From positions 14,395 to 78,394 of the forward strand of contig JBQTIC010000059.1 in NCBI GenBank assembly GCA_052388435.1: a DNA stretch of 64,000 nucleotides. The letters are read 5' to 3'. Both the position numbers and the translations under genes were made by a program. The notes beneath the pieces were generated by a model. The model made no database searches. It worked only from the letters and a program-made list of their open reading frames with translations, and was not told where the DNA came from. The first letter of the stretch is position 1; the number at the start of each line of letters is the position of its first letter. The DNA is from Chromatiales bacterium. GTDB taxonomy: Bacteria; Pseudomonadota; Gammaproteobacteria; JAJPIJ01. Shown here piece by piece: positions 12,443-64,000 of this stretch.

Positions 12443-14691
12443 ACGCGATCCTGGTAAGGCTCCGCCGGCATTGGATCCGTATCGCCTTGGGTCTCGCGGT
12501 GCTGGTAGCCTTCCTCCTGCACGTCCGCGAGGAGGAGGGCGGTCTGTTCCGCGTGGGCCTCATCGACCAGCTGGAGAATTTGGCCTACGACACCCGGCTC
12601 GCATTCAGCATGCCGCGCACCCTCGATCCGCGCATCGTCATCGTGGACATTGACGAAAAGAGCCTTGCGGCCGAGGGCCGCTGGCCGTGGCCGCGGCACC
12701 GGCTTGCGAAGCTGCTCGAGCAGCTGTTCGGCACTTACAGGGTGGCGCTGGTCGGGTTCGACATCGTCTTTGCCGAACCCGATGAAAGCTCGGGGCTCAA
12801 GGTACTGGAGCGTCTCGCGGCCGGTGAGCTAAAGGCCGTGCCGCGGTTTGACGAGGCGCTGGAGCAGCTCCGCCCCCAGCTCGACAATGATGCCATCTTC
12901 GCGGGCGCTTTAGGCGAATATCCGGTTGTGCTCGGATACTTCTTCAATGAGCAGGCGAAGGCGCGCACCGGCGCGCTGCCGGCGCCGACCTTCATCAAGG
13001 GCAGCTTCCCCGGCAAGCGCATCGCCTTCCGCGACGCCGCCGGCTACGGCGCTAACCTCGCCCTCTTCAACGAGGCGGCCTTGGGTGCGGGTCATTTCAA
13101 TCCGTGGCTGGACGTAGACGGCGTGGTGCGCCGGGTGCCGATGGTGTTTTCCTTCGAGGGGGCTCAGTACGAGGCCCTGTCGCTGGCTGTCGCCCGCCAC
13201 TACCTGCAGGTCAAGGATGTGCGGGCCGAATTCGAGCCCGTACCCTCGCTGGCGGCGAAGAGCTACTCGGGGTTGGAGTGGCTGCGCATTGGAAAAGCGC
13301 GCATCCCGGTTGATGAGCACGTCCAGGCACTGGTGCCGTACCGGGGCCATCAGGGCAGCTTCCCGTACGTGTCCGCGACTGACGTCATCAATGGCAAGGC
13401 GGACCCGAAGCTGCTGAAGGAGGGAGCGATCGCGCTGGTGGGCACGACCTCCGCCGGCCTGCTCGACCTGCGGGCCACGCCGGTGCAAAGGGCCTACCCC
13501 GGAGTGGAGATCCACGCCAACCTGATCGCCGGGATCCTGGACGGGCGGATCATGCAGCAGCCCGCCTATACGCGCGGCGCGGAGTTCGTGCTCCTCGCTA
13601 TCTTTGGTCTCGTCTTTGCGCTGACACTGCCGATGTTGAGCCCGCTCGCAGCGACTCTGGCAGCTCTGGGCATGCTCGGTGGTTACATCGGGGTCAACCT
13701 CGCATTCTGGCACTTCGGCACACTGGTCCTGCCGATTGCCTCCGGCGTCCTGATGATGCTGGTGATGTTCCTGTTGAACATGTCCTACGGCTACTTCATC
13801 GAAACCCGCGGCAAGCGCCAGCTCACCGGACTGTTCGGACAATATGTGCCGCCCGAGCTGGTCGACGAGATGGCCAAGGACCCCGAACAGTACTCGCTCG
13901 AGGCGGAATCCCGGGAGATGACCGTGCTCTTCTCCGACGTGCGTGGCTTCACCTCCATCTCCGAGGGGCTGGAGCCCAAGGAGGTCGCCGAGCTCATGAA
14001 TCAGATGCTCACACCAATGACGACCGTGATTCACGACCATCGCGGCACGATCGACAAATACATGGGCGACGCGATCATGGCCTTCTGGGGGGCACCGGTG
14101 CCGGACCTCGAGCACGCGCGTCACGCCATCACCGCGGCCATGGAGATGATGGCGAAGCTGGAGGAGATGAACGCGCAGTTCAAAGAGCGCGGCTGGCCCG
14201 AAATCAGGGTTGGCATCGGGATCAACACCGGCGTGATGAACGTGGGCAACATGGGATCGGAATTCCGCATGGCCTACACGGTGCTTGGCGACAGCGTCAA
14301 CCTGGGATCGCGCCTGGAAGGTTTGACCAAGGGCTATGGCGTGCACATCATCGTCAGCGAGGCTAGCAAGGATGCAGTCCCGGATTACGCGTATCGGGAG
14401 CTCGACGTTGTGCGGGTCAAGGGCAAGGACAAGCCGGTCGGGATCTACGAACCGATTGCGCCGGCCACCGCTGTCGACAAGCGGCTGCAGGACGAGCTGA
14501 AACTGTACCGCCAGGCGCTCAGGTACTATCGCACCCAGCAGTGGGACATGGCCGAGTTGCAGTTCCTCAACCTCGCGAAGGCCGCGAACTCCGGCTACCT
14601 GTATAAGATGTACGCCGAGCGCGTAGCGTATTTCCGGCGCAATCCGCCCGGCAAGGACTGGGACGGCGTGTTCACCTTCACCACCAAGTAA
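12439..14691 (+). CDS. CHASE2-domain class III adenylate cyclase
   Basis: CHASE2 (IVIVDIDEKSL..GRWPWPR, DVDGVVRRVP, YPGVEIHAN), 3 TM, cyclase FSDVRGFT, DKYMGD, GINTG, YTVLGDSVNLGSRLEG (K/T residues indicating ATP specificity). Confidence 0.93.
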   Translation: MNAILVRLRRHWIRIALGLAVLVAFLLHVREEEGGLFRVGLIDQLENLAYDTRLAFSMPRTLDPRIVIVDIDEKSLAAEGRWPWPRHRLAKLLEQLFGTYRVALVGFDIVFAEPDESSGLKVLERLAAGELKAVPRFDEALEQLRPQLDNDAIFAGALGEYPVVLGYFFNEQAKARTGALPAPTFIKGSFPGKRIAFRDAAGYGANLALFNEAALGAGHFNPWLDVDGVVRRVPMVFSFEGAQYEALSLAVARHYLQVKDVRAEFEPVPSLAAKSYSGLEWLRIGKARIPVDEHVQALVPYRGHQGSFPYVSATDVINGKADPKLLKEGAIALVGTTSAGLLDLRATPVQRAYPGVEIHANLIAGILDGRIMQQPAYTRGAEFVLLAIFGLVFALTLPMLSPLAATLAALGMLGGYIGVNLAFWHFGTLVLPIASGVLMMLVMFLLNMSYGYFIETRGKRQLTGLFGQYVPPELVDEMAKDPEQYSLEAESREMTVLFSDVRGFTSISEGLEPKEVAELMNQMLTPMTTVIHDHRGTIDKYMGDAIMAFWGAPVPDLEHARHAITAAMEMMAKLEEMNAQFKERGWPEIRVGIGINTGVMNVGNMGSEFRMAYTVLGDSVNLGSRLEGLTKGYGVHIIVSEASKDAVPDYAYRELDVVRVKGKDKPVGIYEPIAPATAVDKRLQDELKLYRQALRYYRTQQWDMAELQFLNLAKAANSGYLYKMYAERVAYFRRNPPGKDWDGVFTFTTK

Positions 14692-47305: not shown

Positions 47306-48067
47306 TCAGTAAACCTTGAGGACGCCATCCTCCTCCTCGATGTACTCAAGGTCCTTGGTCGGCGGGTTGCCGTCATAGATCCTGTACTCGCGGTTCTGGC
47401 GATAGGCCTCGCGGGTGAAACTGTAGGCGTCCAGTGCCGCCTCGTCGCGGATACGCGTGGCCTCGAGCAGATTGGCGCGCTTATTGATACCGTTCACGAT
47501 GCCGAGCGGCAAGGTGACTGTGGTGCTTACATAGAACAGCGGGTTGAGCACCGTGCTCGTTGCCAGATCCGGCGCATCGCGTACCGAATTGGGCCCGAAT
47601 ATCGGCAGCACGAGGTATGCGCCTTCGCCGGCACCCCACTTGCCAAACGTCTGGCCGAGATCCTCGTCGTTTTTCGGGAGGCCCGCGCCGCTGGCGACGT
47701 CGAACAGCCCGCCGAAGCCCACGGTGCTGTTGAGCAGGAAGCGGCCGGTGTCGTTGGCGGCCTGCTGGAACTTGCCCTGCAGCACATCGTTGGCGATGAC
47801 GTTGATGTAGGAGACGTTATCGAAGAAGTTGGTGACGCCCATGCGCACGCCTTTGGGCGTGACCTTGCTGTAAGCCGTTGCCACCGGCTTGATGACCGCC
47901 TTATCTAGGCTGTCATTGATGTTGTAGATGACGCGGTTGACTCCCTGCAACGGGTCGTCGTCCTCGGCCGCGTTGCCCACGCAACCGGAGAGCAACATCA
48001 AGATGATTAGCCCCGCGAAGGCCTCTATGCGGCCCACGTTATTGTACATTTTCATATTCAGCCCCAA
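47306..48067 (-). CDS. mlaA: VacJ/MlaA lipoprotein
   Basis: Lipobox LSGC, DDPLQGVNR, RFLLNSTVGFGGLFDVA, EDLGQTFGKWG, YLVLPIFGPNSVRD. Confidence 0.93.
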   Translation of the reverse strand: MGLNMKMYNNVGRIEAFAGLIILMLLSGCVGNAAEDDDPLQGVNRVIYNINDSLDKAVIKPVATAYSKVTPKGVRMGVTNFFDNVSYINVIANDVLQGKFQQAANDTGRFLLNSTVGFGGLFDVASGAGLPKNDEDLGQTFGKWGAGEGAYLVLPIFGPNSVRDAPDLATSTVLNPLFYVSTTVTLPLGIVNGINKRANLLEATRIRDEAALDAYSFTREAYRQNREYRIYDGNPPTKDLEYIEEEDGVLKVY

Positions 48068-48120: not shown

Positions 48121-48747
48121 CTAATTGCCCGTGCTTCTGGGCGCAGACTCGTACCGCACGATCCTATCATTCAGCTTTGCGATCAGCGCAGCATAGCCTT
48201 CATTCTTTATTATCGACGTATAGTCAGCGCGCTTTAATGACAGATCACTGATGCCGTCGGCGATGACATTCAAAATGCGCCAGCGGTTATCCTTGCTCTG
48301 GCGCAGGACATAATCCAGTTTGACCGCCGAGCCGTCCGGCTTGAGTAGCTCCGTCTTCACTATCACGTTGTTTCCGCTCTGGTTTTCTTCCAAAACGTGG
48401 TGGAAGGACTCGCCGCTGAAGTTGTCAAACCGGGAGGCGTACGTGGCGATGCTTAATCGTGAAAAGGTCTCCACGAACGTGTTCTGCTCCTCGGGGCTCA
48501 GCTCCGACCAGTGGCGTCCGACGACGACCCGGGCGATGCCCGGAAAGTCAAAGCTCTGGCTGATCACGGGATCCAGCGTCTGGTAGCGTCCCGTGTAGCC
48601 GAGTTCTGCGGATCGCTTCATGACATCGAGCAACGCCTCGTGCAGCTTGTCGACTGTCTTGCCCGCATCCGTCTGGCCGGCGGCGCCGGCAGTAAGCGAC
48701 GACCCGCTCAGAGCGAGTACGATCAGCACCGCGCGCAGATAGAGCAT
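48121..48747 (-). CDS. hpnM: MlaC/Ttg2D-family periplasmic lipid carrier; HpnM-like by context
   Basis: FDFPGIARVVVGRHW, YASRFDNFSGE, LDYVL, WRILNVIADGISDL. Confidence 0.8.
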   Translation of the reverse strand: MLYLRAVLIVLALSGSSLTAGAAGQTDAGKTVDKLHEALLDVMKRSAELGYTGRYQTLDPVISQSFDFPGIARVVVGRHWSELSPEEQNTFVETFSRLSIATYASRFDNFSGESFHHVLEENQSGNNVIVKTELLKPDGSAVKLDYVLRQSKDNRWRILNVIADGISDLSLKRADYTSIIKNEGYAALIAKLNDRIVRYESAPRSTGN

Positions 48748-48882: not shown

Positions 48883-50004
48883 TCAGGATAGCCGTTGGTA
48901 GCGGCGTCCCTTCCAGCTCGAGCGTTCACCGTGGTAGTAACGCAGCGCGGAGCTCCAGGTCATGGCAAGGAAGAGCAGCGCAGTTGCCGGCAACAGCGCT
49001 GCCCACAGCGGCGAGAGATCGTAGTAGCGCAGCGTCGGCACGTATGGCAGCGCAAGGAGCAGGTAGCCGCAGGCCCCAATCAGGGAGGCGGGGTGTTCGC
49101 TGAGCAGCAGTGCAACCGGGGGGACGGAGTAGTACAGCGTCATCAGCGCGGTGCAAGCAAGCAGGAGCACCGGCGAGTAACGCAGCTGCGTGTACGCGCT
49201 GCGCACTACCATCTGCCAGAGCCCAGCGAGTGTATAGCGACGCTGGCTCTGCGCGGAACGGGTGAGGCCGATCCAGGTGCGCCCTCCGGCGCTCTTTATT
49301 TTTGCCGCAAGCGCGCAGTCGTCGATCAATGCTTCTTTCAGCGCCGCAAATCCGCCGATGCCCGCCAGCGCGCTGGTGTCGAGGAGCGTGCATCCCCCCG
49401 CCGCTGCGGCAACCGCAGAGCGCGGCGAGTTGGAAAGAGCGAAGGGGTAGATGAGCTTGAAGTAGTAGACGAACGCGGGCAACAGCAGGCGCTCCCAGAA
49501 ACTCTTCATGCCCAAGTGCGCCATCAGCGACACCAGCTGCAATCCCTGCTGGCGCAGCTTCGCGCGCAGTTCAGCCAGCAGACCTGGCGCGAGCAAGATG
49601 TCGGCGTCAATGAGCGCCGTCAGCGGTGTTTGCACGCGCGATCGCCCCTGCTCCAGCGCCCACAGCTTCCCGGTCCAGCCCGCAGGCAGGGGCTGCCCCC
49701 CGATGATCTCCAGCGCTGCAATCCCGGTCGCTTCGGCGAGGGCGGCCGTGCCGTCACTCGATTCATCGTCGATGACTATGATACGCAAGCCGGCACCCTG
49801 CGCGGCAAGGGCGGTGAGTGTCTTGCCAATCATCTGACGCTCGTTGCGTGCGGGTACCAGTACCGTGATGTCGGAGAGATCCGGCGCATCAGGTGTCCGC
49901 GCGTCGAGTGATTCCGCGGTCGACCAGGGTCGCCAGGGCAACAGCAGCAGGGCCACGCCGATAACAAGGCCGACCACTGCGAGGGCGTTCATCGCAGTTG
50001 CCAA
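48883..50004 (-). CDS. hpnB: Hopene-associated glycosyltransferase HpnB
   Basis: VPARNE, GWTGKLWAL, DADI, AAAAGGC, ALIDDCALA, VVRSAYTQLRYS. Confidence 0.85.
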   Translation of the reverse strand: MATAMNALAVVGLVIGVALLLLPWRPWSTAESLDARTPDAPDLSDITVLVPARNERQMIGKTLTALAAQGAGLRIIVIDDESSDGTAALAEATGIAALEIIGGQPLPAGWTGKLWALEQGRSRVQTPLTALIDADILLAPGLLAELRAKLRQQGLQLVSLMAHLGMKSFWERLLLPAFVYYFKLIYPFALSNSPRSAVAAAAGGCTLLDTSALAGIGGFAALKEALIDDCALAAKIKSAGGRTWIGLTRSAQSQRRYTLAGLWQMVVRSAYTQLRYSPVLLLACTALMTLYYSVPPVALLLSEHPASLIGACGYLLLALPYVPTLRYYDLSPLWAALLPATALLFLAMTWSSALRYYHGERSSWKGRRYQRLS

Positions 50005-50071: not shown

Positions 50072-51211
50072 CTACTGCTGCGCGACGCGCTGTGTGTGGG
50101 TGCCGCACGAACGCGCCGGCTCGCTCTTGACCACGAGTTTGAGCTTCGGTCGCGCCTCCTGCTCGTAGAGGATAGGCAGTTCGGGAGCCATCGGGCCACT
50201 GGTCCTGGGACCGCAAAAGGCGACCTTCAACGCCTTGAGAGGACGGCGGAAGATGTCGTTGACTGCCGTGGCCTCGTAGCCGCTGTGCACCATGCAGTTG
50301 GCGCATTTCGGGTTCCTGCTGGTGCCGTAATGGTCCCAGTCAGTCTCCTCCATCAGCGCCTTGAAGGTGGGTGCGTAGCCTTCGCCGACCAGCAAGTAGC
50401 ACGGCCTCTGCCAGCCGAACACGTTACGCGTTGGGTTGCCCCACGGGGTGCAGTGATAGGTCTCGTTGCCGGCGAGGAAGTTGAGATAGAGAGAAGACTG
50501 GTTGAAGCGCCAGCGCCGGCCGTTGCCCAGTTTGAAGATGTCGCGGAAGAGCTGCTTGCTCTGCTGGCGCTTCAGGAAGACATCCTGGCGCGGAGCGCGC
50601 TCGTAGCTGTACCCGGGAGAGATCGTCACGCCTTCGATGCCCAGCTCCATCATGGTGTCCATGAACTCGGCCACTTCCCCTGCCGCTTCGCCCTGGAACA
50701 GCGTGCAATTGGCGGTAACGCGGAAGCCGCGTGCGCGCGCCTGCCGGACTACCTCGATGCATTTCTCGTAGACGCCATCGCGGCACACCGAGGCGTCATG
50801 CCGATCCCGGTTGCCATCCAGATGGATGGAGAAGGTGAGGTAGGGCGAGGGGGTATACTCATCCATCTTGCGCTCGAGCAGCAACGCGTTGGTGCAGAGA
50901 TAGACGAACTTCTTCCTGGCCATGAAGCCGCGGACGATGCGCGCCATGTCCTTGTGAATGAGCGGCTCGCCGCCAGCGATCGACACAACGGGCGCGCCGC
51001 ATTCGTCGATGGCCGCCATGCACTCCTCGTAGCTCAGGCGCTTGTCGAGGATCTCGTCCGGATAGTCGATCTTGCCGCAGCCGGCGCAGGCGAGGTTGCA
51101 GCGGAAAAGCGGCTCGAGCATCAGCACCAGAGGATAGCTGTGGTTTCCTCTGATCTTCTGCTCAATGATGTAACGCGCGACACGGTATTTTTGAATTAAT
51201 GGCACGCCCAT
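50072..51211 (-). CDS. hpnH: Adenosylhopane synthase, radical SAM
   Basis: YPLVLMLEPLFRCNLACAGCGKI, IAGGEPL, CTPWGNPTRN, CANCMVHSGYE. Confidence 0.95.
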   Translation of the reverse strand: MGVPLIQKYRVARYIIEQKIRGNHSYPLVLMLEPLFRCNLACAGCGKIDYPDEILDKRLSYEECMAAIDECGAPVVSIAGGEPLIHKDMARIVRGFMARKKFVYLCTNALLLERKMDEYTPSPYLTFSIHLDGNRDRHDASVCRDGVYEKCIEVVRQARARGFRVTANCTLFQGEAAGEVAEFMDTMMELGIEGVTISPGYSYERAPRQDVFLKRQQSKQLFRDIFKLGNGRRWRFNQSSLYLNFLAGNETYHCTPWGNPTRNVFGWQRPCYLLVGEGYAPTFKALMEETDWDHYGTSRNPKCANCMVHSGYEATAVNDIFRRPLKALKVAFCGPRTSGPMAPELPILYEQEARPKLKLVVKSEPARSCGTHTQRVAQQ

Positions 51212-51424: not shown

Positions 51425-53320
51425 ATGTCCCCCAACGGTGCTTACCCGCTTCTGAGTCGCATCAGCTCACCGGCCGATCTGCGGCGGATGCCGGAATCGC
51501 AACTGGGGTCCCTCGCGACAGAGTTGCGCAATTTCCTGGTCGAATCGGTGAGCCAGAGCACCGGTCATTTCGCAGCAGGTTTGGGGACTATCGAACTGAC
51601 CATCGCGCTGCACTACATCTACAACACTCCCGGGGATCGGCTGGTGTGGGACGTCGGTCATCAGGCCTATCCGCACAAGATTCTGACCGGCCGCCGTGAC
51701 CGCATCCTGACCATCCGCAAATGGGGCGGTCTGGCGCCTTTCCCCAAGCGCGACGAGAGCAATTACGACACCTTCGGGGTTGGTCACTCGAGCACCTCCA
51801 TCGGAGCCGCACTGGGCATGGCCATCGCTGCCCAGAAATCCGGTAGCCGGCGTAGGGCGGTGGCCATCATCGGCGATGGCGGACTGACCGCGGGCATGGC
51901 CTTCGAGGCACTCAACCATGCCGGCGACCTCGGCGCCGATCTGCTGGTCGTCCTCAACGACAACAACATGTCAATCTCGCCCAACGTCGGCGCGCTCTCT
52001 AGCCGCTTCGCGCAGATCCTCTCCGGCAAGCTGTACACGACCATCCGCGAGGGCAGCAAGAAGGTGCTGGCACACATGCCGCCGGTGCGGGAGTTGGCAC
52101 GCCGGGCCGAGGAGCACATGAAAGGACTTATCGTCCCAGGCACGCTGTTCGAGGAGTTCGGCTTCAACTACATCGGGCCCATTGATGGGCACGACCTGCA
52201 CGCGCTGATTCAGACCTTGCGCAACATCCACGAGCTGCGGGGCCCGCAGCTTCTGCACATCATCACCAGGAAGGGGAAGGGTTATGCGCCCGCGGAGGAA
52301 GATCCGGTCAAGTACCACGGCATCTCCTCGCCTTTCGATCCGGAACTGGGTGTGCAGCCCTCGGGCAAGCCATCGCGACCCACCTACAGCGACGTCTTCG
52401 GCGAGTGGGCGTGCGACATGGCGGAGGCGGATGCGCGCCTGGTCGCCATCACGCCGGCAATGCGCGAGGGGTCCGGCCTGGTCAAGTTCCACAAGCAGTT
52501 CCCGGATCGCTACTTCGATGTCGCCATTGCCGAGCAGCACGCGGTGACGCTCGCCGCCGGCATGGCCTGCGACGGACTGAAACCGGTCGTCGCGATCTAC
52601 TCCACCTTCCTGCAGCGCGCCTACGATCAGCTCATCCACGATGTGTGCCTGCAGAACCTGCCGGTGTTGTTTGGCATTGATCGAGCCGGCCCGGTCGGCA
52701 ATGACGGCCCGACACATAACGGTTCCTACGACGTGAGCTTCATGCGCTGCTTGCCCAACATTGTGCTGATGGCACCCGCCGACGAAGACGAATGCCGGCA
52801 GATGCTGTACACAGGATTCACGCTGGATCAGCCCGCCGCAGTGCGCTACCCTCGTGGCAGCGGTCCTGGGGTGGTGGTCCAGAAGGCCATGACTGCGCTG
52901 CCCGTCGGCACAGCCGAAGTGCGCCGGCGGGGCAGGGGTGTGGCCATACTGTCCTTCGGCACGCCCCTATCGATCGCGCTGCCGGTGGCCGAGGAACTGG
53001 ACGCGACGGTGGTCAACATGCGCTTCATCAAGCCGCTTGACGCCGACATCATCCTGGAGATGGCGGAATCGCACCAACTCCTCGTGACGCTGGAGGAGAA
53101 TGTCGTCGAGGGCGGCTGCGGTAGCGCCGTCAACGAGGCGCTCGCGGCGCGGGGGGTTGTCGTCCCGGTGCTCAACTACGGACTGCCCGATCGTCTCATC
53201 CAGCACGGTTCGCAGGACGACATGCGCAGGGACGCGCGGTTGACCAGGGACGATCTGCTGCGCGCAATCCAGTCCCGGCAGCAGTCACAGCCGAGGCTCC
53301 GCCCCGCGCACCGCGCGTAG
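51425..53320 (+). CDS. dxs: 1-deoxy-D-xylulose-5-phosphate synthase
   Basis: [56 protein letters not shown]. Confidence 0.97.
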
Positions 53321-53464: not shown

Positions 53465-54151
53465 ATGAAATCATCGATCGTAAGGTGGTTGTGGGTCATG
53501 GTGCTCTGGGCGGCCACCCATGCGGCGACGGCCGCAGAGGTCGCAGGTGAAGTGACCGCGGTGAGCGGCGAGGTGTACGGCCAGCTCTCAGGCGAGCCGC
53601 AGCGCAGGCTTGCGCAAGGGGCAAAGGTTTACGCCGGCGATGAGATCAGAACCGCGGCGAACTCCAGCGTCGAGCTACTGTTCGGCGATCAGACGCGCTT
53701 CGTCCTCGGCCCGCAGTCGCAGATGAGCGTCACCCAGTACCGCTACCAGCCGGGCGACGCTGGGAGCCTCTTCGACACCAGAATCTTACAAGGCGTATTC
53801 CGTTTCTTCAGCGGGCTCATCGCCAAGCAACGGCCACAGGCGGTGAGGATAAGCATGCCTGTCGCCACCATCGGCATACGCGGCACGCACGTGCTCGGAG
53901 AGGTGACCGCGACCTCGGCCATCGTGGCCCTGCTGGAGCCCGAAGAGGCCGGTGAGCCGACAGCGATCGAAGTGTCGAATCAATATGGAAGCGTGGTTCT
54001 CGATCAGCCCAACTACGAAACCGTGATCCCGGACGCCAACAGTCCGCCCTCGCCGCCGCGTCGGGTACAGACTCAACGCATCGACAATCTGCTTCGCTCC
54101 ATACACACCATCCGCCGTATCAATATTCCGCGCCCGGGCTACCATCGCTAA
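53465..54151 (+). CDS. Exported FecR-domain protein, paralog 2
   Basis: Signal peptide ending ATA-AEV, GDEIRT, LGPQS, QGVFRF, TIGIRGT; shares LLEPEEAG and IDNL.RSI..I.RI..PRP with paralog 1. Confidence 0.85.
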   Translation: MKSSIVRWLWVMVLWAATHAATAAEVAGEVTAVSGEVYGQLSGEPQRRLAQGAKVYAGDEIRTAANSSVELLFGDQTRFVLGPQSQMSVTQYRYQPGDAGSLFDTRILQGVFRFFSGLIAKQRPQAVRISMPVATIGIRGTHVLGEVTATSAIVALLEPEEAGEPTAIEVSNQYGSVVLDQPNYETVIPDANSPPSPPRRVQTQRIDNLLRSIHTIRRINIPRPGYHR

Positions 54152-54194
54152 CTAATCATTCGGTCGGACAGGGGCGTTTGTCGGGGTTGGCGCG

Positions 54195-55025
54195 TTGAAT
54201 CAGGCGTCGCTCATCGGGGCCATGTGCATGGCGCTGATAGTCGCGGCGTGCGCGACGACGCCGTCCCACCGATACGACACCGAGGCGCAGCACTTGGGCT
54301 TTCAGCGGGAAGTCGTGCCGGGGACGGCGTTCTCGCACGTCGTCTATATGCGTCCGTCACAATCGAGGCGCGAGCCCTTGCACGTCTACCTCGAAAGCGA
54401 CGGCTCACCCTGGATCGGCAGTACACGCATTGCCGCCGATCCGACGCCCACCGAGCCGGTCGCGCTGCGCCTGATGCGCCTGGATCCTTTACCCGCCGCA
54501 CTCGTCGGCCGGCCCTGCTACAACGGAATGCATTCCTCGCCCCCCTGCCGTCCGGCATTGTGGACACACGGCAGATACTCCGAGGCGGTCGTGGCAAGCA
54601 TGGCCGTCGTCATCAGACACCTGATGCAACAACACGGCACTGCCGCGATAGTGCTTATTGGCTACAGCGGCGGCGGAACGCTGGCGATGCTGCTGGCGGA
54701 GCGGTTGCCTGACGTCGCCGCCGTCGTCACGCTGGCTGGCAATCTGGATACCGATCGATGGACGGAGTTCCACGACTACTCGCCGCTCACCGGATCACTC
54801 AATCCGGCGTCGCGCCCGCCGTTGCCGTCGCGGATTGTGCAATGGCATGTGGCGGGCGGCAGAGACAGGAATGTGCCGCTCGCACTGATTAACGATGAAG
54901 TGAAACGGCAGCCGAACGCACGGCTCAGGGTGCTTCCGAAAGCGGACCACGCCTGCTGCTGGGAGCAGGCGTGGCCGCAGATCCTGGAAGAAATCGAGGT
55001 GCTGTCCAGCGCCCGCGCACCCTGA
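54195..55025 (+). CDS. Alpha/beta hydrolase lipoprotein, paralog 2
   Basis: Lipobox VAAC; YLESDG; GYSGGG; DRNVP; DHACCW. Confidence 0.85.
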   Translation: MNQASLIGAMCMALIVAACATTPSHRYDTEAQHLGFQREVVPGTAFSHVVYMRPSQSRREPLHVYLESDGSPWIGSTRIAADPTPTEPVALRLMRLDPLPAALVGRPCYNGMHSSPPCRPALWTHGRYSEAVVASMAVVIRHLMQQHGTAAIVLIGYSGGGTLAMLLAERLPDVAAVVTLAGNLDTDRWTEFHDYSPLTGSLNPASRPPLPSRIVQWHVAGGRDRNVPLALINDEVKRQPNARLRVLPKADHACCWEQAWPQILEEIEVLSSARAP

Positions 55026-55056
55026 GCGGGTGCATCGACTGTACACTCACGCTGGG

Positions 55057-56457
55057 CTAAAACTGTAGTCGCGCGCCGACTTCAAAGGCGTGCACGGCCA
55101 GATCTTCGTAGCCGATCAAACCCTGGTACAGGAAGTGGCCGTACCAGCCGTTGCGGAAATCCGTGGTCAGCCCGGCGCTCACACTGCCATAGTTCCTGTC
55201 GGGCTCATCGGTCGGGAGCAGGAACGTCGAGCCGCTCGTGTCCTGCACCAGCCGTCCAGTGGTGTCCTCGTTGTCGTTGTCGAATTCATGTACGTACTCG
55301 ACGCCGACTTGCGGAAACACATCGAAGGACTTTGCACTGATCGCTGTCAGCACGCGGCCGCCTATCGCCGTCGTAACAGAGGTGAAGGCCTGATCGTCGA
55401 TCTGGAGGGCGAAATCGGAGTTTACCGTACCCGGCGCGGGCGGACCCAGGATCTCCGTGAAGCCATCGATCTCGGTATGCGCGACATCGAGGCGCGCGTA
55501 CGGCGTCATGGTCCACCGGCCACGGTAGAAGTCGTAACCCGCCTCGAGACTTCCGGCGATCTCGTCGCTGTCGGTGTCGGAGAAGGCGGTTTGATTGACG
55601 ATCGACGCCGTGCCCGCGATGGTGTAGATGATGTTGCGCTCCTGGTCATGATCGGTGGCGGAGTAACTGGCGATGGCATTGATGTACGACTGCGGAGATG
55701 GGTAGTAACTGCCATACAGCGATCCGGAGATGCCATCCGTGTCCAGGCTGCCGCTGTTGCTGTCGAGATCCACATCCTGTGTGGTGTAGCCCACCGCCAG
55801 ACCGACGAGGGACTGATCGCTAAGCCGGTAGTCCACTCCGCCCGTCACGCCGTAACTGTTGAGATCAAAGCCGGTCTCACGCAAGGTGGTGTCCTTGTCG
55901 CCTAAGCCGAAGTTGCCGTTGAGGAATACGCCCAACCGTCCGCTGCCCAAATTGTCCGCACTGGCGCCCCCGCCGCGAGGGCTGCCTAAGATTTCCGAGG
56001 CAGTCAGCCGCTTGCCGTCGATGGTAATGTTGATGGCTGTTTCCTCTTCCTCATCCTCTTCTTTGCGCCGCTGCTCCAGCCGTTCGCGCAGCTCGTCAGT
56101 CTGGGGCGGTGAACCCTCAACCTCGATCGTTTGTACTGCGGAGTTTTCTTCCGGCGCCATGGCCTGCAGGCCGGCGAGCGCGCCGCTGATGTCGCCGCCA
56201 CTAAGGATTGCTCCGGCAATATCGTTACAACGATCCTGAAGATCGGAACTCAGGATAGAAGGGCTTGCTGGACAGATAAACCCGACCAGTTCGCCTGTGA
56301 CCTGCTGCGGAGGCGTCTGCCCTGCTGATCTCAATATGGGTCCTCCGCCACCGTTCGCTCCGGGCCCTGGTATGACCGACTGAGCGCAGATATCGGTAGC
56401 GATGGCCAGCGAGATGCAGGCAGATAAAGCAGTGCGTCGCAGGGTGCAGCTTCGCAT
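55057..56457 (-). CDS. Autotransporter-type outer-membrane beta-barrel protein with a very short N-terminal domain
   Basis: Signal peptide, about 130-aa region with two Cys, barrel motifs GVTGGVDY, ISGSLYGSY, DGFTE, EYVHEF, terminal Phe (GARLQF). Confidence 0.82.
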   Translation of the reverse strand: MRSCTLRRTALSACISLAIATDICAQSVIPGPGANGGGGPILRSAGQTPPQQVTGELVGFICPASPSILSSDLQDRCNDIAGAILSGGDISGALAGLQAMAPEENSAVQTIEVEGSPPQTDELRERLEQRRKEEDEEEETAINITIDGKRLTASEILGSPRGGGASADNLGSGRLGVFLNGNFGLGDKDTTLRETGFDLNSYGVTGGVDYRLSDQSLVGLAVGYTTQDVDLDSNSGSLDTDGISGSLYGSYYPSPQSYINAIASYSATDHDQERNIIYTIAGTASIVNQTAFSDTDSDEIAGSLEAGYDFYRGRWTMTPYARLDVAHTEIDGFTEILGPPAPGTVNSDFALQIDDQAFTSVTTAIGGRVLTAISAKSFDVFPQVGVEYVHEFDNDNEDTTGRLVQDTSGSTFLLPTDEPDRNYGSVSAGLTTDFRNGWYGHFLYQGLIGYEDLAVHAFEVGARLQF

Positions 56458-56674
56458 CGGTTCCCCCTCCCGTCTCGAAGAATGCATGGAGTTTGTTGGT
56501 CTCTAGCCTACTCCTACGAAAACTCCTTGGCAAATTAGTGCCTTCCTTTGGAAACCTGAGAAGGAGTTTAGACGGCTTTTTGAATCTGATCGATGCCGCA
56601 AGAGCCGCGCTGTGCGAGTAACGACGGTTGGCGGGAGGGCCGGGCAACGTGAGCAGGGGGCGCCGGAGCGGCGG

Positions 56675-57760
56675 CTACGGCCGCACTATGCTGTCGAAGG
56701 CGGCGAGCAGGCGTTGAATGTCGGCCGATGTGATCTCTCCCATGGTGGAGATGCGAAAGATCGACTTCGCAAGAGCGCCTTGCCCGGAGTAGATGACAAA
56801 ACCGTGTGCTTTGAGGTGATCGTGCAGCCGTTCGTAGCTCATCCCCGCGGGCAGGCGATAAGCGTGGAGGACGACCGAGGAGACGCCATCCGGCAGCAAT
56901 GGCTTCACGCCCAGCGCAACGAGGCCACTGCGCGCCTGTTGCGCAAGCGCCGTATACCGTGACTGCCGAGCACGCCATCCACCCTGCTCGGCGAACTCGA
57001 CAAGCGCTTCATCGAGCGCATAGAAGCTGTGCACCGACTGCGTAAACGGCGTGCCACCGTGGTCCTGCTCGCGGCAGTAGGTATTCAGATCGAGATAGAG
57101 CGTGCGGCGAGGTAGCGTGTCATCGTCGAGGGCATCGCGGCGGACAATCACGAAGGCCGTACCCGGCACACCGTGGAGGCACTTGTTCGCCGTTGCCGCG
57201 CATGCCGTGATGCCCCACTCCTCGAAATCGAGTTCCTCGGCGCCAAAGCTGCTCACCCCGTCGAGCAACAGGCCCACGTAACGCTCGCGGCACAGGCGGG
57301 CGATGGCTTCGATGCGGTTCAGCCGGCCCGTCGTGGTCTCGTGGTGGACAATCGCCACGTGCGAGATGTCCTGGTGCTCGTCGAGCAGCAGCCGCACGCG
57401 CTGGGTGTCGACCTCCCCGCCCCACTCAAGCGACAATGCCAGGTGGGGAATGCCATGAATGGCGGCGATCGTCCTGAGCCGTTCGCCGTAGACGCCGTTC
57501 GCGATGATGAGCAGCCTGCTGCGCGCGGGCCCGAGGCTGCTGACCATCGCCTCCATCGCTGCGGTCCCAGAGCCGGTCAGCAGCACCGCGGCATAGCGTC
57601 TTGGGTCGAGCCCGTACACCTCCAGCAGTCTGGCGCGGATCCGGTTCTGCAGTTCTGCAAACTCCGGCTCGCGATGGCAGAGATCTGGCCTCTTGAGGGC
57701 GGCGCGCACGCGCGCGCTCAAGGTCACCGGTCCGGGATTGAGCAGAACGATCGATGACAT
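56675..57760 (-). CDS. aepZ: 2-aminoethylphosphonate aminotransferase (class V PLP), biosynthetic by context
   Basis: LLNPGPV, GSGTAAME, NGVYGER, HHETTTG, DGVSSFG, ANKCLHGVPG, PFTQSV. Confidence 0.9.
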   Translation of the reverse strand: MSSIVLLNPGPVTLSARVRAALKRPDLCHREPEFAELQNRIRARLLEVYGLDPRRYAAVLLTGSGTAAMEAMVSSLGPARSRLLIIANGVYGERLRTIAAIHGIPHLALSLEWGGEVDTQRVRLLLDEHQDISHVAIVHHETTTGRLNRIEAIARLCRERYVGLLLDGVSSFGAEELDFEEWGITACAATANKCLHGVPGTAFVIVRRDALDDDTLPRRTLYLDLNTYCREQDHGGTPFTQSVHSFYALDEALVEFAEQGGWRARQSRYTALAQQARSGLVALGVKPLLPDGVSSVVLHAYRLPAGMSYERLHDHLKAHGFVIYSGQGALAKSIFRISTMGEITSADIQRLLAAFDSIVRP

Positions 57761-58914
57761 CAGAAACGGGTGCGGATGTGGTTCATCAGCCGGCGGACGA
57801 CCTCCGGCGGCGTGATCTTGGGCCGCGGGAGATCTTCGATCGTGCCAGTGGCGATCTTGACGTGCGCCAGCTTGGGCCCTCGATGCGTGGTGTCGCGCAG
57901 CAGCGTGTCGATAATGTCGGGCGTGTCGCCGCCGATGCTCAGGCCATAGCCGCACGCCTGCGCGATCTTTGCGAATGCGACACTCGCGCTGACGGTAGAC
58001 TGGCCGCCGGTTGACTCATGCGCCTCGTTGTCGAGTACGATGTGATAGAAGTTATCGCCGCCATATGCGCCGACCGTTGAGAAGTTGCCCATGCGCATGA
58101 GAGCCGCGCCGTCGCCATCGATGACGATCACCTTCAGGTCGGGCCGTGCCAGTGACAGACCCAGGCCGAGCGAGGAGGCGCAACCCATCGAGCCGACCAT
58201 GTAGAACTGGTTGCTGCGATCGGACAGGGCATAAAGCTCGCGACCGGTGTAGCCGGTGGTGGCAATAATCACGCTGTGCGTTTCCGGCGCAAGCGAGACG
58301 AGGCGCCGCAGCGCCTCGTTGCGCGACGGCCGCTCGGTGCCTGCCGCCGGGCTTGTCGATATCACCTCGCCAGGCCCGCGGACGTCGCCGGGCGAACGCC
58401 TGCGCAACTCGTGCTTTGCGACGGTGCCCCCCTGCATCAGGAACCCGTACGGCCGCTGCTCGCGCTCCATGTAGTCCTGGGCGCGAGCGAGTGCAGCGTC
58501 GATATCCTCGGCTCCAGTTGGGAATCCCTCCCAGGGCACGCGCATGATGTCGAACATCGACCCGGTGATCCGACCCATCAGTTCGTGCTGGGGCTCATCC
58601 TGTATGCCTGGTGCGCCGCGGTGGGTGCAAACCATGAGCGTGGGAATGCGGAACACATAGCTGAGAGATGTGATGGGGCTCACCGCGTTGCCTAGTCCGG
58701 AGTTTTGCAGCATGACCACCGCACGCTTGCCGCCGATTGCCGCACCGGCTGCCGTGGCCAGGGCGTCGCCCTCGTTGGCGGAGGAGATGTAACTTAACTT
58801 GTCGTCATTGATGACGTAATTGATGAAAGGAGTGAGAAAGGAGCACGGCACGCCCGTGTAGGTCTGGTAGCCGCGCGCGCGCGCCGCCTCCACAAACTGC
58901 TCCGCCTGAATCAT
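57760..58914 (-). CDS. aepY: Phosphonopyruvate decarboxylase
   Basis: GVPCSFL, NEGDA, MLQNSGLGNAVSP, EPQHELMG, FYMVGSMG, DGDGAALMRMG, HESTGGQ. Confidence 0.95.
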   Translation of the reverse strand: MIQAEQFVEAARARGYQTYTGVPCSFLTPFINYVINDDKLSYISSANEGDALATAAGAAIGGKRAVVMLQNSGLGNAVSPITSLSYVFRIPTLMVCTHRGAPGIQDEPQHELMGRITGSMFDIMRVPWEGFPTGAEDIDAALARAQDYMEREQRPYGFLMQGGTVAKHELRRRSPGDVRGPGEVISTSPAAGTERPSRNEALRRLVSLAPETHSVIIATTGYTGRELYALSDRSNQFYMVGSMGCASSLGLGLSLARPDLKVIVIDGDGAALMRMGNFSTVGAYGGDNFYHIVLDNEAHESTGGQSTVSASVAFAKIAQACGYGLSIGGDTPDIIDTLLRDTTHRGPKLAHVKIATGTIEDLPRPKITPPEVVRRLMNHIRTRF

Positions 58915-59093
58915 CGTGTTGGTTCAGCTGCGATCGAAGAACTGAGGTACAGGGGCGCCAATTTCGCCGGGAACGTTTTGTCGGGAACAAAACGTCGCGA
59001 CAGCCGCGAGGCGGTGAGTCTCAGGAATGGGGCGAGCAGGAAAATTGCGCGCCAGCCCCCTATGGGTGAGGCACAGGGGTGAGCCCGAACAGT

Positions 59094-59148
59094 GAGCGCC
59101 CCGGTGGGGCGCTCGCCGGGCGAACGGACATGCCACGGATGGCGTGGC
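59094..59148. repeat. Hairpin/REP-like palindromes in the pepM-ppd spacer
   Basis: GAGCGCCCC-GGT-GGGGCGCTC (59094-114); GCCAC..GTGGC (59132-148). Confidence 0.45.
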
Positions 59149-59296
59149 CTGGACTTGCGATGCGAAGCAGGAATGCGCAGCTTTGTAAGCGTCGAGCAAT
59201 TCCTTTGGCTGTATATCGAGTTCTTTGGACATTGCGCCCAGATCTTCAGAGGCCGGCGGGCAGAGTGAGCGCTCCTCTGGTTTGCGCAACGACGTG

Positions 59297-60952
59297 TCAC
59301 TGGGCACCACGGGTGAAGTCGCCGGCGCGATCGAGGTCTTCCAGGGAATTCACATCGAGCCAATGACCGTTGATGTAGAGCACGCGGATCGGCCGTGCCT
59401 GTTCCACGAGATAGTTGAGGACGTGTGGAAGACCGAGCACGTGATAGTCGGCACGCCGCTTCATCGCCCCGAGGGCCTCGAGCAGCCAGCCTCGTCCCGC
59501 GCCACGCACGCGCAGCATGCCGATCCAGCGCCCGGAACAGCGCTCCGCTGCCGCGCCGGTTTCCTTGCCGACACGCAGCAGGCGCACGTCGTGATCCAAC
59601 ACCGCGCGGTCATCGGGCACCGAGCACCACGCGTAGTCCGGAGAGCCGCTGGCGGGTTGGGTCGCAGTCGCGGAATCCACTACCGTCACGATCTCACCGT
59701 CGCTGTCGAGCAGGTCGCGCAGGATGTAGCTGCGGAACAGCAGGTCCCCGTAAAGGATGACTGTGTCATCGCCAACGTCGCTCTCCGCGCAGACCAGAGA
59801 GGCGAGCTCGCCGGTGGTAGCGTAATGAGGATTGACGGTCACCTTGATTCCGGGTACATCGATGGCGTCAGCGCGGTAGCCGGCGACCACGGTCGTGTCG
59901 TTGATGCCCTCCCTCTTGAATTCGTCGATCAGCCGGCGCAGCAGTGGCTTGCCGCTGATGGACAGCATGACCTTGGGCCGCGACTGCGTGAGCCGTTCCA
60001 GCTCGTCACCGCGGCTGGCAGCGAGAACGATCGCGCGGGGACGAGCCTGGCTACCTCCCGCATAACGCAGCTCCGCCTCCTTCAACTCGGCTGCGCCCTG
60101 CAGGCGGAAGATCTCGTTCACGGAGGCAATTCCGTCTTCGACGTTGAGCAGGCTCCCGGTGCGCTGGATCTCGCTGGCCACCGACTGCATCGCCGCGACC
60201 GCGGCGCGGACCATATGATTGGCCCAGATGACCAGGCTGATCCTGGCGCGCCTGTAAACCTCCACCGGTGTCGAGTAATACTTGGTCGGGACTATGATGA
60301 CGGGCGCGCGATTGCACCACTCCTTCGCGAAGGCAAGGATCTCTTCCGCGCGCGACAGTTTGCTGTGGATGAGGATGGCGTCGGCCCCGGCTTGCCGGTA
60401 TGCGTCGGCGCGGCGAATCGCTTCCGTCATGTCCCAGCCGGCGATGAGCGCTTCGACGCGCGCGACGATGCAAAAGTCGCGGTCGTTCTGACTGTCCTTG
60501 CCGGCCTTGATCTTGCCGCAGAACTCGTCGATGTCGGCGAGAGGCTGCCGCTCGCCGTCGATGAAGCTGTTGGCCTTCGGAAAGAGCTTGTCCTCAATGC
60601 AGACGCCCGCGACATTGCGTTGTTCGAGCTTGCGCACCAGCCGGCGCATGTTATTGAAATTGCCGTAGCCGGTGTCGCCGTCGAGCAGGATCGGGATGGT
60701 GGTGGCGTCAGTCATGAATTCCAGCATGTCCACCACCTGCGTCCAGCTTGCCTCGTTGTTGTCGCGCACGCCGAACTGCGCCGACACTGCCAGACCGCTC
60801 GCCCAGATGCCTTTGAAGCCGGCCTCCTCGACGATGCGCGCGGACAGACCATTGTGCGCTTCCATGATGAACTCAAGCTCAGGCGATAGCAGCAACTGCC
60901 GTAGTCGCGCGGCACGGCTCGAGCGCGCGGTGATGAGCTCTGGCTTGTTCAT
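59297..60952 (-). CDS. pepM: Phosphoenolpyruvate mutase fused to a C-terminal nucleotidyltransferase-like domain
   Basis: [24 protein letters not shown] mutase signature [18 protein letters not shown]; tail [21 protein letters not shown]. Confidence 0.96.
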
Positions 60953-61695
60953 GTGTCTGCGTTGAGTTGCGGCAGGATCTCGCGGTCGGCGCGCGCGATG
61001 TCCTCCGGGAAGTCAATCTCGACCCAGGGCAGGCCAGTCACGTCCTCGAAGCCGAAGACCCCCGGTGTCGCAAGCAGCAGGTCGCGAATGGCCTCCTCAT
61101 AGGGCTCCTGGCGCCGGCCGCCGTTAACGTAGTCCTCCGTCATCCGGGCTAGCCGCCCCGCGGTCCTCTCCTCGAAGCGGAAGAACCCCACCGATTCGCC
61201 CACGAAATCATACTCCAGATCCGCCGTGATCCGCTTGCGGAACTCCACCAGGCGGCCGTCGCGCACGCACAGTTTCACCGGCTCCTCGCCAGGCTCGAAA
61301 TCGCGGTCGAGCAGGAAGCAGTTGGGCTTGTTCGTGCTGACGAGCCGCTCGAGCAACACGGGATGGTAGAGCACATCCGCATCCATGAGGATCACGTCCC
61401 CTCCGGGGCGCAGGTAGTGGCGCATCGCCCAGAGGCTGACGACGCTGCCTTCGCGATAGTCTGGGTTGAGCACCGTGGAGATGAGCTTGGCGTGAGGGCT
61501 CGCCGCCACGGCCTCGCGCAGCATTCCCGCCTCGTGCCCCACGCATAGGGCGACATGGCCAACGCCGAGATCGGCGAGACATTCAAGATGGTGCGCGAGC
61601 AGCGTCCTGCCGCCGAAGGCGAGAAGGCTCTTCGGACCGTGATGAGCGTCGCCGAGGCGGCGGCCGACTCCGGCGGAGAGGATGATGGCTCTCAT
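60949..61695 (-). CDS. Phosphocholine cytidylyltransferase family (PntC-like)
   Basis: [39 protein letters not shown]. Confidence 0.88.
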
Positions 61696-61754
61696 TTACG
61701 CGTGACTGGTAATTCGCGCTTGCTCAGTGGTGAACAGCCCGCCACCCAAGGTTG

Positions 61755-61789
61755 TTACCAGCCACTAATTACCGATTACCAATCACCGG
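61755..61789. repeat. Five degenerate 7-bp tandem units (YYACYRR)
   Basis: TTACCAG CCACTAA TTACCGA TTACCAA TCACCGG; the last unit contains the oxygenase stop. Confidence 0.6.
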
Positions 61790-62499
61790 CTTCTGAACAC
61801 CTGGCGGAAGCCGAAGTAGGCAATAGCGTCCTTCATGTTGGAGACGAAGCGCCCAACCTTGCTTATCTCGGCGCTGGTCACGTATTCGAGCGTCAGGACG
61901 ACGCGCTCCTCATTCTCCCCGAGAGGGGTGACGCGGTGCCACAGCTTGTCGCCGTTGAAGACGACCAGCGTGCCCGGCGCGAGCGAAACGCTGTGGTGCT
62001 CGCTCGTACGGCCGGGATTGTCGCGGTGAAGTTGGAACTCCAGCTTGCAACTGGAGCGGTCGATGAGGCCGATGAGCACGGTGTAGCGCTCGCCACGATA
62101 GTAGGAGGTGTCGTAGTGCCAGCCGATGTGATCGCCAACCTCCGTGTAGTAATAAAGTGCGTAAGTGTGCGGGTCCTCGCGGGGGCAGGATTGCAGTGCC
62201 CTGTCGGTCAACGCCTTTAAAAAGCCGGCCAGCTCCAGGGATCTGTAGACCGCGGCAAACTGCGGCGCGTGGCGGTCCAGATCGAAGCGGCTGACACTGC
62301 CTCCCTTCTTGTGACCGGGCAGATAGTTGCGGTTAACGCGCGCCTTGAGCGCCGGAAGGGTCGCAAGTAGCGGGTCGAGCACGGAACGCGGCAGGAAATC
62401 CTCGATGACCAGGGCCTCATCCTGCTCATGAAACCGCTTTCGTAACTGTTGCATGTCGAGACCGGCAATGCGTTCGCGCAGCAACGACTCGAACTCCAT
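61783..62499 (-). CDS. 2OG-Fe(II) oxygenase superfamily protein
   Basis: HxD motif in GWHYD, distal His in LWHRVTP, Arg in ERVVL; start at ATG 62499. Confidence 0.85.
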   Translation of the reverse strand: MEFESLLRERIAGLDMQQLRKRFHEQDEALVIEDFLPRSVLDPLLATLPALKARVNRNYLPGHKKGGSVSRFDLDRHAPQFAAVYRSLELAGFLKALTDRALQSCPREDPHTYALYYYTEVGDHIGWHYDTSYYRGERYTVLIGLIDRSSCKLEFQLHRDNPGRTSEHHSVSLAPGTLVVFNGDKLWHRVTPLGENEERVVLTLEYVTSAEISKVGRFVSNMKDAIAYFGFRQVFRSR

Positions 62500-62509
62500 A
62501 GCAAGTCTT

Positions 62510-63157
62510 TCACAACAGAGGGTCAGGCAGAACGCTTCGAGCGATGTGGCGCCAGCGCCGATGCTCGCAGATGGTCCACGCAACGTACGCCAGCGTCCCC
62601 AGTCCGTAAGGGATGAAAAACCAGTGTACGCCGAGCAACCAGGTAATGGGGCCGATGAGGTAGATGAAATCCTCGATCTCAAAACCGGAAAAGTACGGGT
62701 GCTTCACTGACTGCTTGCCGAACCTCTCCTCCATGCGCATGCGCAGCGTCAGGATTAACGGGTTGGAGAGACCGGCGAGGAAGCCGAGCAGGAGCGCCCA
62801 GATGCCCATCGGTCCGTGCGACAGACCCACGCCGATGCCGATGAACAACATCGTGTAGTTGACGCCGCCGACAATGAAATCGTAACGATGTCCGAATGGA
62901 CTGGTCCTGCCGGACAGGCGCGCGAGTTCGCCGTCGGTGTGATCCGTGAAGACCGCCAGCATGTAGATGCCAGCCGCGAGGCCGGCCATGTCAGGACCGC
63001 CCAAGGCAAAGAGGAGTGCCGCGGTCAGGCCGAACAGCAGGCTCAGCGTGGTCAGGTGATTGGGGTGCACCGGTGTACACACGAGCGGGCGCACGACAAG
63101 ACGCGCAAGGCGCTGGTCGTAGGGGATCTCGCTGCCGGGCACGGCGGTGGTCGTCAT
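62510..63157 (-). CDS. CDP-alcohol phosphatidyltransferase family
   Basis: PNHLTTLS, DHTDGELARLSGRTSPFGHRYD signature. Confidence 0.9.
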   Translation of the reverse strand: MTTTAVPGSEIPYDQRLARLVVRPLVCTPVHPNHLTTLSLLFGLTAALLFALGGPDMAGLAAGIYMLAVFTDHTDGELARLSGRTSPFGHRYDFIVGGVNYTMLFIGIGVGLSHGPMGIWALLLGFLAGLSNPLILTLRMRMEERFGKQSVKHPYFSGFEIEDFIYLIGPITWLLGVHWFFIPYGLGTLAYVAWTICEHRRWRHIARSVLPDPLL

Positions 63158-63358
63158 AGGACCCGAGGATCGTTATCAGGGGACGCTAACGGCGTGTTTG
63201 GAGCCGGGAAGGCGGCCGCCTTTATAACCGGATAGTCTGTTGCGTTCAACTGCGGGAATCCGTAACACCCCGCTCGTCCCCGCCTTTGTTGGCGGACGGG
63301 CCGTGTGCGAGCATAGGGGAGAAGGGCGCTGAGGCCCCGGCAGAATCGAGGCAAGAGG

Positions 63359-64000
63359 ATGTCAGAGCTGAATCCGTATGCGGCGCCCGCCGCGCGCGTC
63401 GCGGATGTCCTTCCCGCCGGCGCTGTCGAGTTGGCGAGACCGGAGACGCGGCTTTGGGCCTGTCTTGTGGACGCCATTCTATACACGGCTATCGGCGCAG
63501 TCGGGACCGCCACCGGGCTGATGCTCGCGCAGATGCCTGTCGCCGAACCACTGGGCGAGCACCCCACCGTGGGTGAGTTCTTTGCCGCCGCCGCGCTTGC
63601 CGTCATCGGCGCCCTCGCGGCAGTCACGATCCTGTTCATTTATAACTGCGTGTTGCTCTATCGCAGCGGCCAGACGGTGGCCAAGCGGATGTTCCAGATC
63701 CGGATCGTGCGGCCCGATGGCCGTCGCGCCAGCTTCACGCGCATACTGCTGCTACGCAAGGTCCTGCAGTGGGTGCTGCAGTCCATACCCCTTTGGGATC
63801 GGAATCGTGTACTGGCTCATCGATTCGCTCTGCATCGTCCGCGCCGACCGCCGCTGCGTGCACGATCACGTCACAAACGCCGGCGCGGCGAAGGGCTGGA
63901 GTTTCACCAGTTGCGTGAGTACCGCGGGGGCGACAGCCTGCGGCAAATCGACTGGAAGGCGACCTCCCGCCAACGAAAGCTGGTCTCTCGAGAGTACCAG
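63359..64000 (+). pseudogene. Chimeric open frame: RDD-family N-terminus joined to an internal part of a DUF58 protein; runs off the window
   Basis: MSELNPYAAP...RLWACLVD...GQTVAKR...; the RDD C-terminus (IDSLC..RRCVHDH) is in another frame after 63791; GEGLEFHQLREY..DSLRQIDWKATSR from about 63872 is in the ATG frame. Confidence 0.7.

Follow-up and report, generated by a model that had tools for sequence, protein, structure and literature searches.

A 64,000-nucleotide stretch of contig JBQTIC010000059.1 from a Chromatiales bacterium (Gammaproteobacteria; hereafter the window) carries on its minus strand, at 56675-63157, six co-directional genes of a phosphonate cluster, each scoring above the curated hidden Markov model cut-off of its Pfam or NCBIfam family. 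We found this cluster to be embedded in a hopanoid super-locus with the organization Shc-HpnG-HpnN-CDPOH-HpnA-HpnL...PepM...Dxs-HpnH-HpnB-HpnM, a placement that is new in the present analysis. As many other bacteria also have the cluster inside the hopanoid locus, it may make a hopanoid decorated with a phosphonate rather than an ordinary phospholipid. In what we consider the best, if tentative, reading (probability about 0.45), the family to which the cluster belongs, the Group 1 phosphonolipids, makes a phosphono-hopanoid and not a glycerophosphonolipid: cytidine monophosphate (CMP)-activated, hydroxylated 2-aminoethylphosphonate (AEP) would be transferred to bacteriohopanepolyol by the hpnN-linked transferase, yielding a (1-hydroxy-)AEP ester, with HpnL acting as a flippase and HpnA in polyol supply. 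The genes of the cluster are:

62510..63157, minus strand: CDP-alcohol phosphotransferase paralogue, CDPOH-1 (PF01066, 47.3 bits against a cut-off of 22)
61783..62499, minus strand: 2-oxoglutarate (2OG)/Fe(II) oxygenase of 238 aa (PF23169 HalD, 51.1 against 26; PF13640, 28.3 against 27)
60949..61695, minus strand: stand-alone PntC-like cytidylyltransferase of the NTP_transf_3 family, NT2 (PF12804, 51.2 bits against 27)
59297..60952, minus strand: PepM-NTP_transf_3 fusion (TIGR02320, 397.8 against 319.55; EDKxxxxxNS motif)
58915..59296, no strand: PepM-Ppd spacer of 382 bp, the reading frames of which are not conserved
57760..58914, minus strand: phosphonopyruvate decarboxylase, Ppd (TIGR03297, 425.5 against 312.5)
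56675..57760, minus strand: 2-aminoethylphosphonate transaminase, AEPT (TIGR03301, 404.7 against 360.8)

The hopanoid genes of this genome are divided between two contigs. Within the window, Dxs, HpnH, HpnB and HpnM lie 3.4 to 8.5 kb downstream of AEPT and are listed here with a neighboring lipoprotein gene, whose type corresponds to the 'HpnS' of the Belin preprint (10.1101/2025.07.29.667474):

51425..53320, plus strand: Dxs, isoprenoid precursor supply (TIGR00204, 898.7 bits)
50072..51211, minus strand: HpnH, adenosyl-hopene transferase (TIGR03470, 555.3 bits)
48883..50004, minus strand: HpnB, hopene-associated glycosyltransferase (TIGR03469, 382.7 against a cut-off of 379.25)
48121..48747, minus strand: HpnM (TIGR03481, 223.2 bits)
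47306..48067, minus strand: MlaA-like lipoprotein (NF011672, 131.7 bits, below cut-off)

The other contig, C60 (L103), encodes Shc, HpnG, a PhyH/PhnY*-like dioxygenase, HpnN, a canonical CDP-alcohol transferase and HpnA (TIGR03466, 508 bits). The last three genes are tightly packed, with HpnN ending at 12430, the transferase occupying 12440-13045, and HpnA starting at 13042, such that the latter two overlap. Beyond HpnA are found a kynureninase-like and tryptophan 2,3-dioxygenase pair on the opposite strand (L103:14046-16125), which is absent from this position in the sister metagenome-assembled genome (MAG) L001, and then an HpnL-like gene (TIGR03476, 156 bits, below the cut-off of 195.65) and a GFA gene. 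In L001, the stretch immediately upstream of the cluster is collinear with C60, and the window's contig ends in 67 bp that overlap perfectly, in reverse, with C60 18196-18262; given this collinearity and overlap, the two contigs are probably adjacent. The functional unit reaches past the window, and 63157 is correct as its end only for the window. The first-pass annotation of the interval, which read it as a phosphonolipid cluster, missed this place inside a hopanoid locus. At the contig end itself (window 63359-64000; also L104:1754-2737 and L103:18036-18653), an RDD N-terminus runs into DUF58 in a single 327-aa frame and C60 ends in another RDD fragment, which suggests that the assembly branches at a repeat here. 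A cassette of FecR-like, hydrolase and autotransporter genes (window 53465-56487) splits AEPT from Dxs; in the relative L002 an autotransporter (59% identity) likewise comes right after AEPT, while in most other relatives AEPT is followed directly by Dxs.

The same linkage recurs in other genomes. At least 11 gammaproteobacterial MAGs span all or part of the order HpnG-HpnN-CDPOH-HpnA-HpnL-OXY-NT2-PepM-Ppd-AEPT-Dxs-HpnH (OXY, oxygenase), and Dxs follows AEPT in 17 loci. Pandoraea cepalis, G138 and G054 have the cluster contiguous with Shc: in Pandoraea cepalis, Dxs, HpnN, HpnH, HpnA, HpnB, HpnG and Shc come directly after the Group 1 core, and in G054, a genome that lacks the oxygenase, one co-directional array comprises Shc-HpnG-PhyH-HpnN-HpnA-HpnL-NT2-PepM-Ppd-AEPT. 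Moreover, the core gene of the Burkholderiales clusters labeled 'LPG_synthase_TM' scores as HpnL (TIGR03476, 356 against 195.65) and is the sole HpnL above cut-off in the Pandoraea genome. Beyond direct linkage, and as descriptive counts over genomes that are partly related and hence not independent, Shc is present in 37 of the 40 oxygenase-bearing genomes (from Pseudomonadota, Cyanobacteriota, Gemmatimonadota, Nitrospirota and Methylomirabilota), the three without a match being MAGs (L002, L016, L045). In a class sample of 301 evenly drawn genomes an orthologous oxygenase occurs in seven, all of which have both Shc and PepM, against a Shc background of 48/301 (16%). The PepM-NTP_transf_3 fusion occurs in 23 genomes, 19 of them with Shc; of those without it, G171 shows Hpn genes that extend to the edge of its contig, and G086, G093 and G280 encode a different cluster type (52-55% identity, with neither the transferase nor HpnL nearby) and so are not counter-examples. 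Accordingly, all genomes of the class sample with a Group-1-like PepM either have Shc or show Hpn genes at a contig edge. These tallies include genomes flagged as unpublished (G017 and G019 in the set of 40; G079 in the set of seven; G079, G181 and G336 in the PepM set). Earlier 'phosphonate-terpene' hybrid calls, in Nitrosococcus oceani (PMC7285500), in Roseomonas (PMC8776678) and in a remark in PMC8942020, similarly link pepM to squalene/hopene cyclase genes; however, these are passing remarks derived from cluster-calling software, which name neither the transferase, HpnL nor the oxygenase and do not make the connection to Group 1.

The phosphonate genes themselves belong to an already described family, namely the 'Burkholderiales_CDP-OH' group, which Li & Horsman 2022 (PMC8942020) equate with the Group 1 phosphonolipids of Yu et al. 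2013. With 318 of 882 pepM neighborhoods (36%), it is the most abundant family in RefSeq, and its seven-gene core comprises PepM-PntC, Ppd, AEPT, a 2OG oxygenase, a second PntC and two 'phospholipid' genes, with a 1-hydroxy phosphonate as the predicted product, uncharacterised as of 2022 (PMC8942020). We found no later characterisation of that product in the literature. The same cluster is also drawn in a paper on Nostoc (PMC5987646). The window shares with the family the PepM fusion with its EDKxxxxxNS motif, adjacent Ppd and AEPT genes, a second PntC-type transferase and an orthologous oxygenase, in the same gene order, with the oxygenase 54-59% identical to the Burkholderiaceae copies; syntenic orthologs of NT2 and the oxygenase are found in Pandoraea, Caballeronia and Paraburkholderia. 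Across 80 loci from several phyla that were fetched with the oxygenase, the syntenic genes include the transferase in 66, NT2 in 68, PepM-NT in 65, Ppd in 57 and AEPT in 52, with many of the shortfalls falling at contig ends. The idea of an AEP-oxygenase-lipid pathway is therefore a published prediction, which the first-pass annotation repeated, and not a new one. The two lipid genes are where the present system differs in arrangement from the described core: the HpnL-type gene, part of the operon in Group 1, is here divergent, below the family cut-off and on the neighboring contig, the window's contig itself having no PF03706 gene; the canonical transferase is likewise on C60; and the transferase in the window is an extra paralog. 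Furthermore, the two lipid genes are called phospholipid genes in PMC8942020, where hopanoids go unmentioned for the group. The head group predicted here does have a characterised bacterial counterpart in the 1-hydroxy-2-AEP sphingophosphonolipid of Bacteriovorax stolpii (as cited in PMC8942020), albeit with a sphingolipid anchor and a cluster placed there in another family (GCF 761). In Nostoc, the region upstream of the transferase-oxygenase pair (L006:3510-7219) encodes a B12-binding radical SAM protein (best, weak match to the P-methyltransferase PhpK), an SDR and a metallo-beta-lactamase-fold protein, which hint at further tailoring in cyanobacteria.

All six genes on one strand had been reported in the first-pass annotation, and its family assignments (CDP-alcohol transferase, oxygenase, cytidylyltransferase, pepM-NTase, ppd and AEP transaminase) are upheld by the Pfam and NCBIfam models. 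Two gene starts were corrected: that of the oxygenase from the start of a 299-aa open reading frame (ORF) to the ATG at 62499, 10 nt past the transferase stop, and that of AEPT to the ATG at 57760, with a 1-nt overlap with the ppd stop. The NT2 and PepM reading frames overlap by 4 nt. The PepM-Ppd spacer varies from 382 bp in the window to 227 bp in L001 and about 50 bp in L002, and its ORFs (58911-59363 and 58924-59310) match no family and give no tblastn match in the 80 loci; we treated them as non-coding. Also rejected as genes were the 161-aa ORF at 63154-63639, which matches no family, has a low-complexity Ala/Arg-rich translation and is antisense to the RDD gene, and an 'unknown 414-aa' ORF in L007, which is the antisense frame of an HpnL-like gene. 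A catabolic, PhnW-type role for the transaminase was set aside, as the biosynthetic-type model TIGR03301 passes its cut-off, TIGR02326 fails, and PepM and Ppd are present.

Members of the CDP-alcohol transferase family (PF01066) bear the signature D1xxD2GxxAR...GxxxD3xxxD4, in which D4 is a Mg-2 ligand and the presumed catalytic base (PMC6506517). More than 60 syntenic orthologs read DHTDGELAR..GHxYDLxxD and thus keep D4, whereas CDPOH-1 reads DHTDGELAR..GHRYDFIVG, with a glycine at D4 in alignment to AF2299. Such glycine copies (..DF(I/L)VG) are found in the window, L001, L002 and G138, i.e., four genomes from at least two families; in the tree they group on a long branch, as a clade supported at 100/100, and they show ratios of nonsynonymous to synonymous substitution rates (dN/dS) of 0.06-0.21, similar to those of neighboring genes. 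That the D4 loss signals decay is not supported by these ratios. On such sequence grounds we regard CDPOH-1 as a lineage-specific paralog under purifying selection, which is likewise new in the present analysis. The canonical transferase on C60 retains all four aspartates and groups with the orthologs of other gammaproteobacterial MAGs. Thus, the family call of the first-pass annotation was right, although it overlooked both the replacement of the presumed catalytic D4 by glycine and the canonical copy and HpnL-like gene on the neighboring contig.

The cluster encodes two nucleotidyltransferases (NTases). NT2 has the canonical signature AGVGRRLG, and its best PDB match, over the full length, is the PntC Tde1415 (6pd1), with acidic residues kept at the AEP-amine contact positions (D for E104, E for E196); the match itself is at only E 1.8e-6 by sequence, and formation of CMP-AEP by NT2 is a prediction. 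The PntC enzymes assayed in the available part of the corresponding study (Ari1348, Tde1415; PMC6697681) are only stand-alone or AEPT-fused versions. The NTase domain fused to PepM (window 59297-60070) has LAASRG..L instead of LAAGxGxRL, departing from the AAGxGxR signature of PntC with a variant that almost every PepM-fused copy in the family has, and its best PDB match is LicC. A role for the second NTase in handling a hydroxylated substrate is weakened, since both NTases persist in the oxygenase-less G054 array and the second is hence not explained by the hydroxyl. In L096, from the Nitrospiraceae genome of L053, a 570-aa PepM-like/NTase fusion (275 bits, below the phosphoenolpyruvate mutase cut-off) reads EDNVYPKRCS where PepM has EDKxxxxxNS; the oxygenase of that genome lies apart from it, beside ftsK and lolA.

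The oxygenase has the facial triad H128-Y-D130...H188 (GWHYD, LWHRV) followed by R199, all invariant across 44 homologs from several phyla (mean column identity 58%), which agrees with the hydroxylase-type HxD...H motif noted in the first-pass annotation. Sequence searches, which recovered 4333 homologs at E<=1e-3, place it as a distant relative of HalB and BesD, and an AlphaFold (AF2) model (predicted local distance difference test score 91.9) retrieves HalB, HalD, HalA and the hydroxylase 7jsd as the best Foldseek matches (TM 0.66-0.73, probability 1.00). The triad residues, sequence kinship and modeled structure together identify it as a predicted hydroxylase-type member of the BesD-like fold group and not of the PhnY*/TauD type, an assignment that is new here. 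It shares the fold and the Pfam HalD match with the radical halogenases BesD, HalA, HalB and HalD and a hydroxylase homolog (6nie, 7u6i, 7u6h, 7jsd), and the triad aspartate with the hydroxylase members of the family; yet, it is only ~16-20% identical to these enzymes, which act on free lysine or ornithine as against the phosphonate and hopanoid gene ties seen here. PhnY*/TauD-type enzymes are the family known to hydroxylate AEP. The chemistry predicted for the window enzyme, 2OG-dependent hydroxylation beside phosphorus from AEP to 1-hydroxy-AEP, is like that of PhnY*, FzmG and the TauD-type alpha-hydroxylases, but these belong to another 2OG subfamily (PhyH/TauD). The tailoring of AEP suggested by the first-pass annotation fits the synteny, with NT2 and PepM adjoining the oxygenase in 65-68 of the 80 loci, while hydroxylation itself stays a prediction. 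The oxygenase is missing from G054 and from two further genomes of its family, G055 and G273, although all three have PepM and a transferase, pointing to an optional tailoring step. The PhyH-family dioxygenase between hpnG and hpnN on C60 (L103:8646-9572), which also occurs in L001 and the G054 array, resembles methylphosphonate/PhnY*-type hydroxylases (NF052437, 207 bits, below cut-off) and may serve as a second phosphonate hydroxylase or as an alternative one.

Given this organization, we propose a Kennedy-like head-group pathway that would form a working module within the hopanoid locus. Membership in curated families predicts that PepM forms phosphonopyruvate, Ppd converts it to phosphonoacetaldehyde, and the transaminase yields AEP. 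The BesD-like hydroxylase would then act on AEP or CMP-AEP, most likely at C1 to give 1-hydroxy-AEP, the PntC-like NT2 would activate the phosphonate with cytidine triphosphate, and a CDP-alcohol transferase would pass the phosphonyl group to a membrane alcohol. The most likely acceptor would be a side-chain hydroxyl, probably the terminal one, of bacteriohopanepolyol, with the HpnL-type flippase-like protein and the HpnN exporter potentially moving the product outward. We favor this acceptor over diacylglycerol on three grounds: the position of the transferase gene, flanked by hpnN and hpnA, the inclusion of an HpnL gene in the core, and the confinement of the cluster to hopanoid producers. 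The first-pass annotation had remarked in an aside that something other than diacylglycerol might be the acceptor, and this context lends real support to the remark, with the identity of the acceptor still a prediction.

Several points weigh against the phosphono-hopanoid. All AEP lipids known to us are glycero- or sphingolipids, and we know of no report of such a conjugate from the hopanoid surveys of Burkholderia and Nostoc; a literature search also found no paper naming both bacteriohopanepolyols and aminoethylphosphonate. A long distance separates the cluster from shc in Nostoc, Caballeronia and G128, the relatedness of the sampled genomes means that the tallies overstate the association, and the hydroxylation site and the substrate of the oxygenase are guesses from context. 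The gene linkage could also arise if two separate lipids of the envelope were co-regulated or co-exported. This is the basis of the main rival explanation, which we consider quite possible, that a classical phosphonolipid is made by transfer of CMP-(1-hydroxy)AEP to diacylglycerol and the hopanoid genes are neighbors only by virtue of a shared role in the outer membrane. It accords with the published prediction (PMC8942020), with the use of diacylglycerol by Kennedy-type CDP-alcohol transferases, with the resemblance of HpnL-type proteins to phospholipid flippases (TIGR00374 and MprF matches) and with those clusters that are unlinked from shc; however, it leaves unexplained the transferase gene between hpnN and hpnA with its overlapping or near-abutting junctions, the confinement of this cluster type to shc-bearing genomes, and the co-directional Shc-to-AEPT array of G054.

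The other two alternatives concern individual steps. If the loss of the metal ligand and presumed base at D4 (PMC6506517) makes CDPOH-1 a pseudo-enzyme, lipid attachment by the interval would be defunct and its six genes would make only soluble CMP-AEP or hydroxy-AEP. This seems doubtful in view of the low dN/dS of the paralog and the conservation of the glycine variant across genomes, and attachment need not depend on the D4-less paralog in any case because a canonical copy is present in the same genome. We deem it improbable that the oxygenase acts off the phosphonate, on some other amine-bearing molecule such as a free amino acid or an aminated hopanoid side chain: that the nearest structures are of lysine or ornithine enzymes would fit such a role, as would the lack of phosphonate neighbors in the Nitrospiraceae, Acidobacteriota and Caldora loci, the distance of 1.3 Mb from pepM in G128 and the presence in the super-locus of a second, PhnY*-like dioxygenase that is kept in the oxygenase-less G054, but the adjacency to NT2 and PepM in most loci, the presence of PepM in all seven carriers of the class sample and an identity of only ~20% to the amino-acid enzymes speak against it, and the invariant basic residues R57, K64, R138, R217 and K223 would suit an anionic substrate.

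Group 1 accounts for about one-third of the pepM neighborhoods in reference genomes, including those of Burkholderia, and its product was still uncharacterised in the 2022 inventory (PMC8942020); in turn, hpnA and hpnL are without known function in the hopanoid papers of 2025-26. The genomic link joins the question of the Group 1 product and that of hpnA/hpnL function into one testable question, for which Pandoraea, Caballeronia, Paraburkholderia and Nostoc offer tractable cultured carriers. A phosphono-hopanoid, if real, would supply functions for orphan hopanoid genes and constitute a new hopanoid class. Such a hopanoid, with an amine and a C-P bond, would bear on the charge of the envelope and its resistance to phospholipases and phosphatases, as well as on the reading of hopanoid biomarkers and the environmental phosphonate pool.

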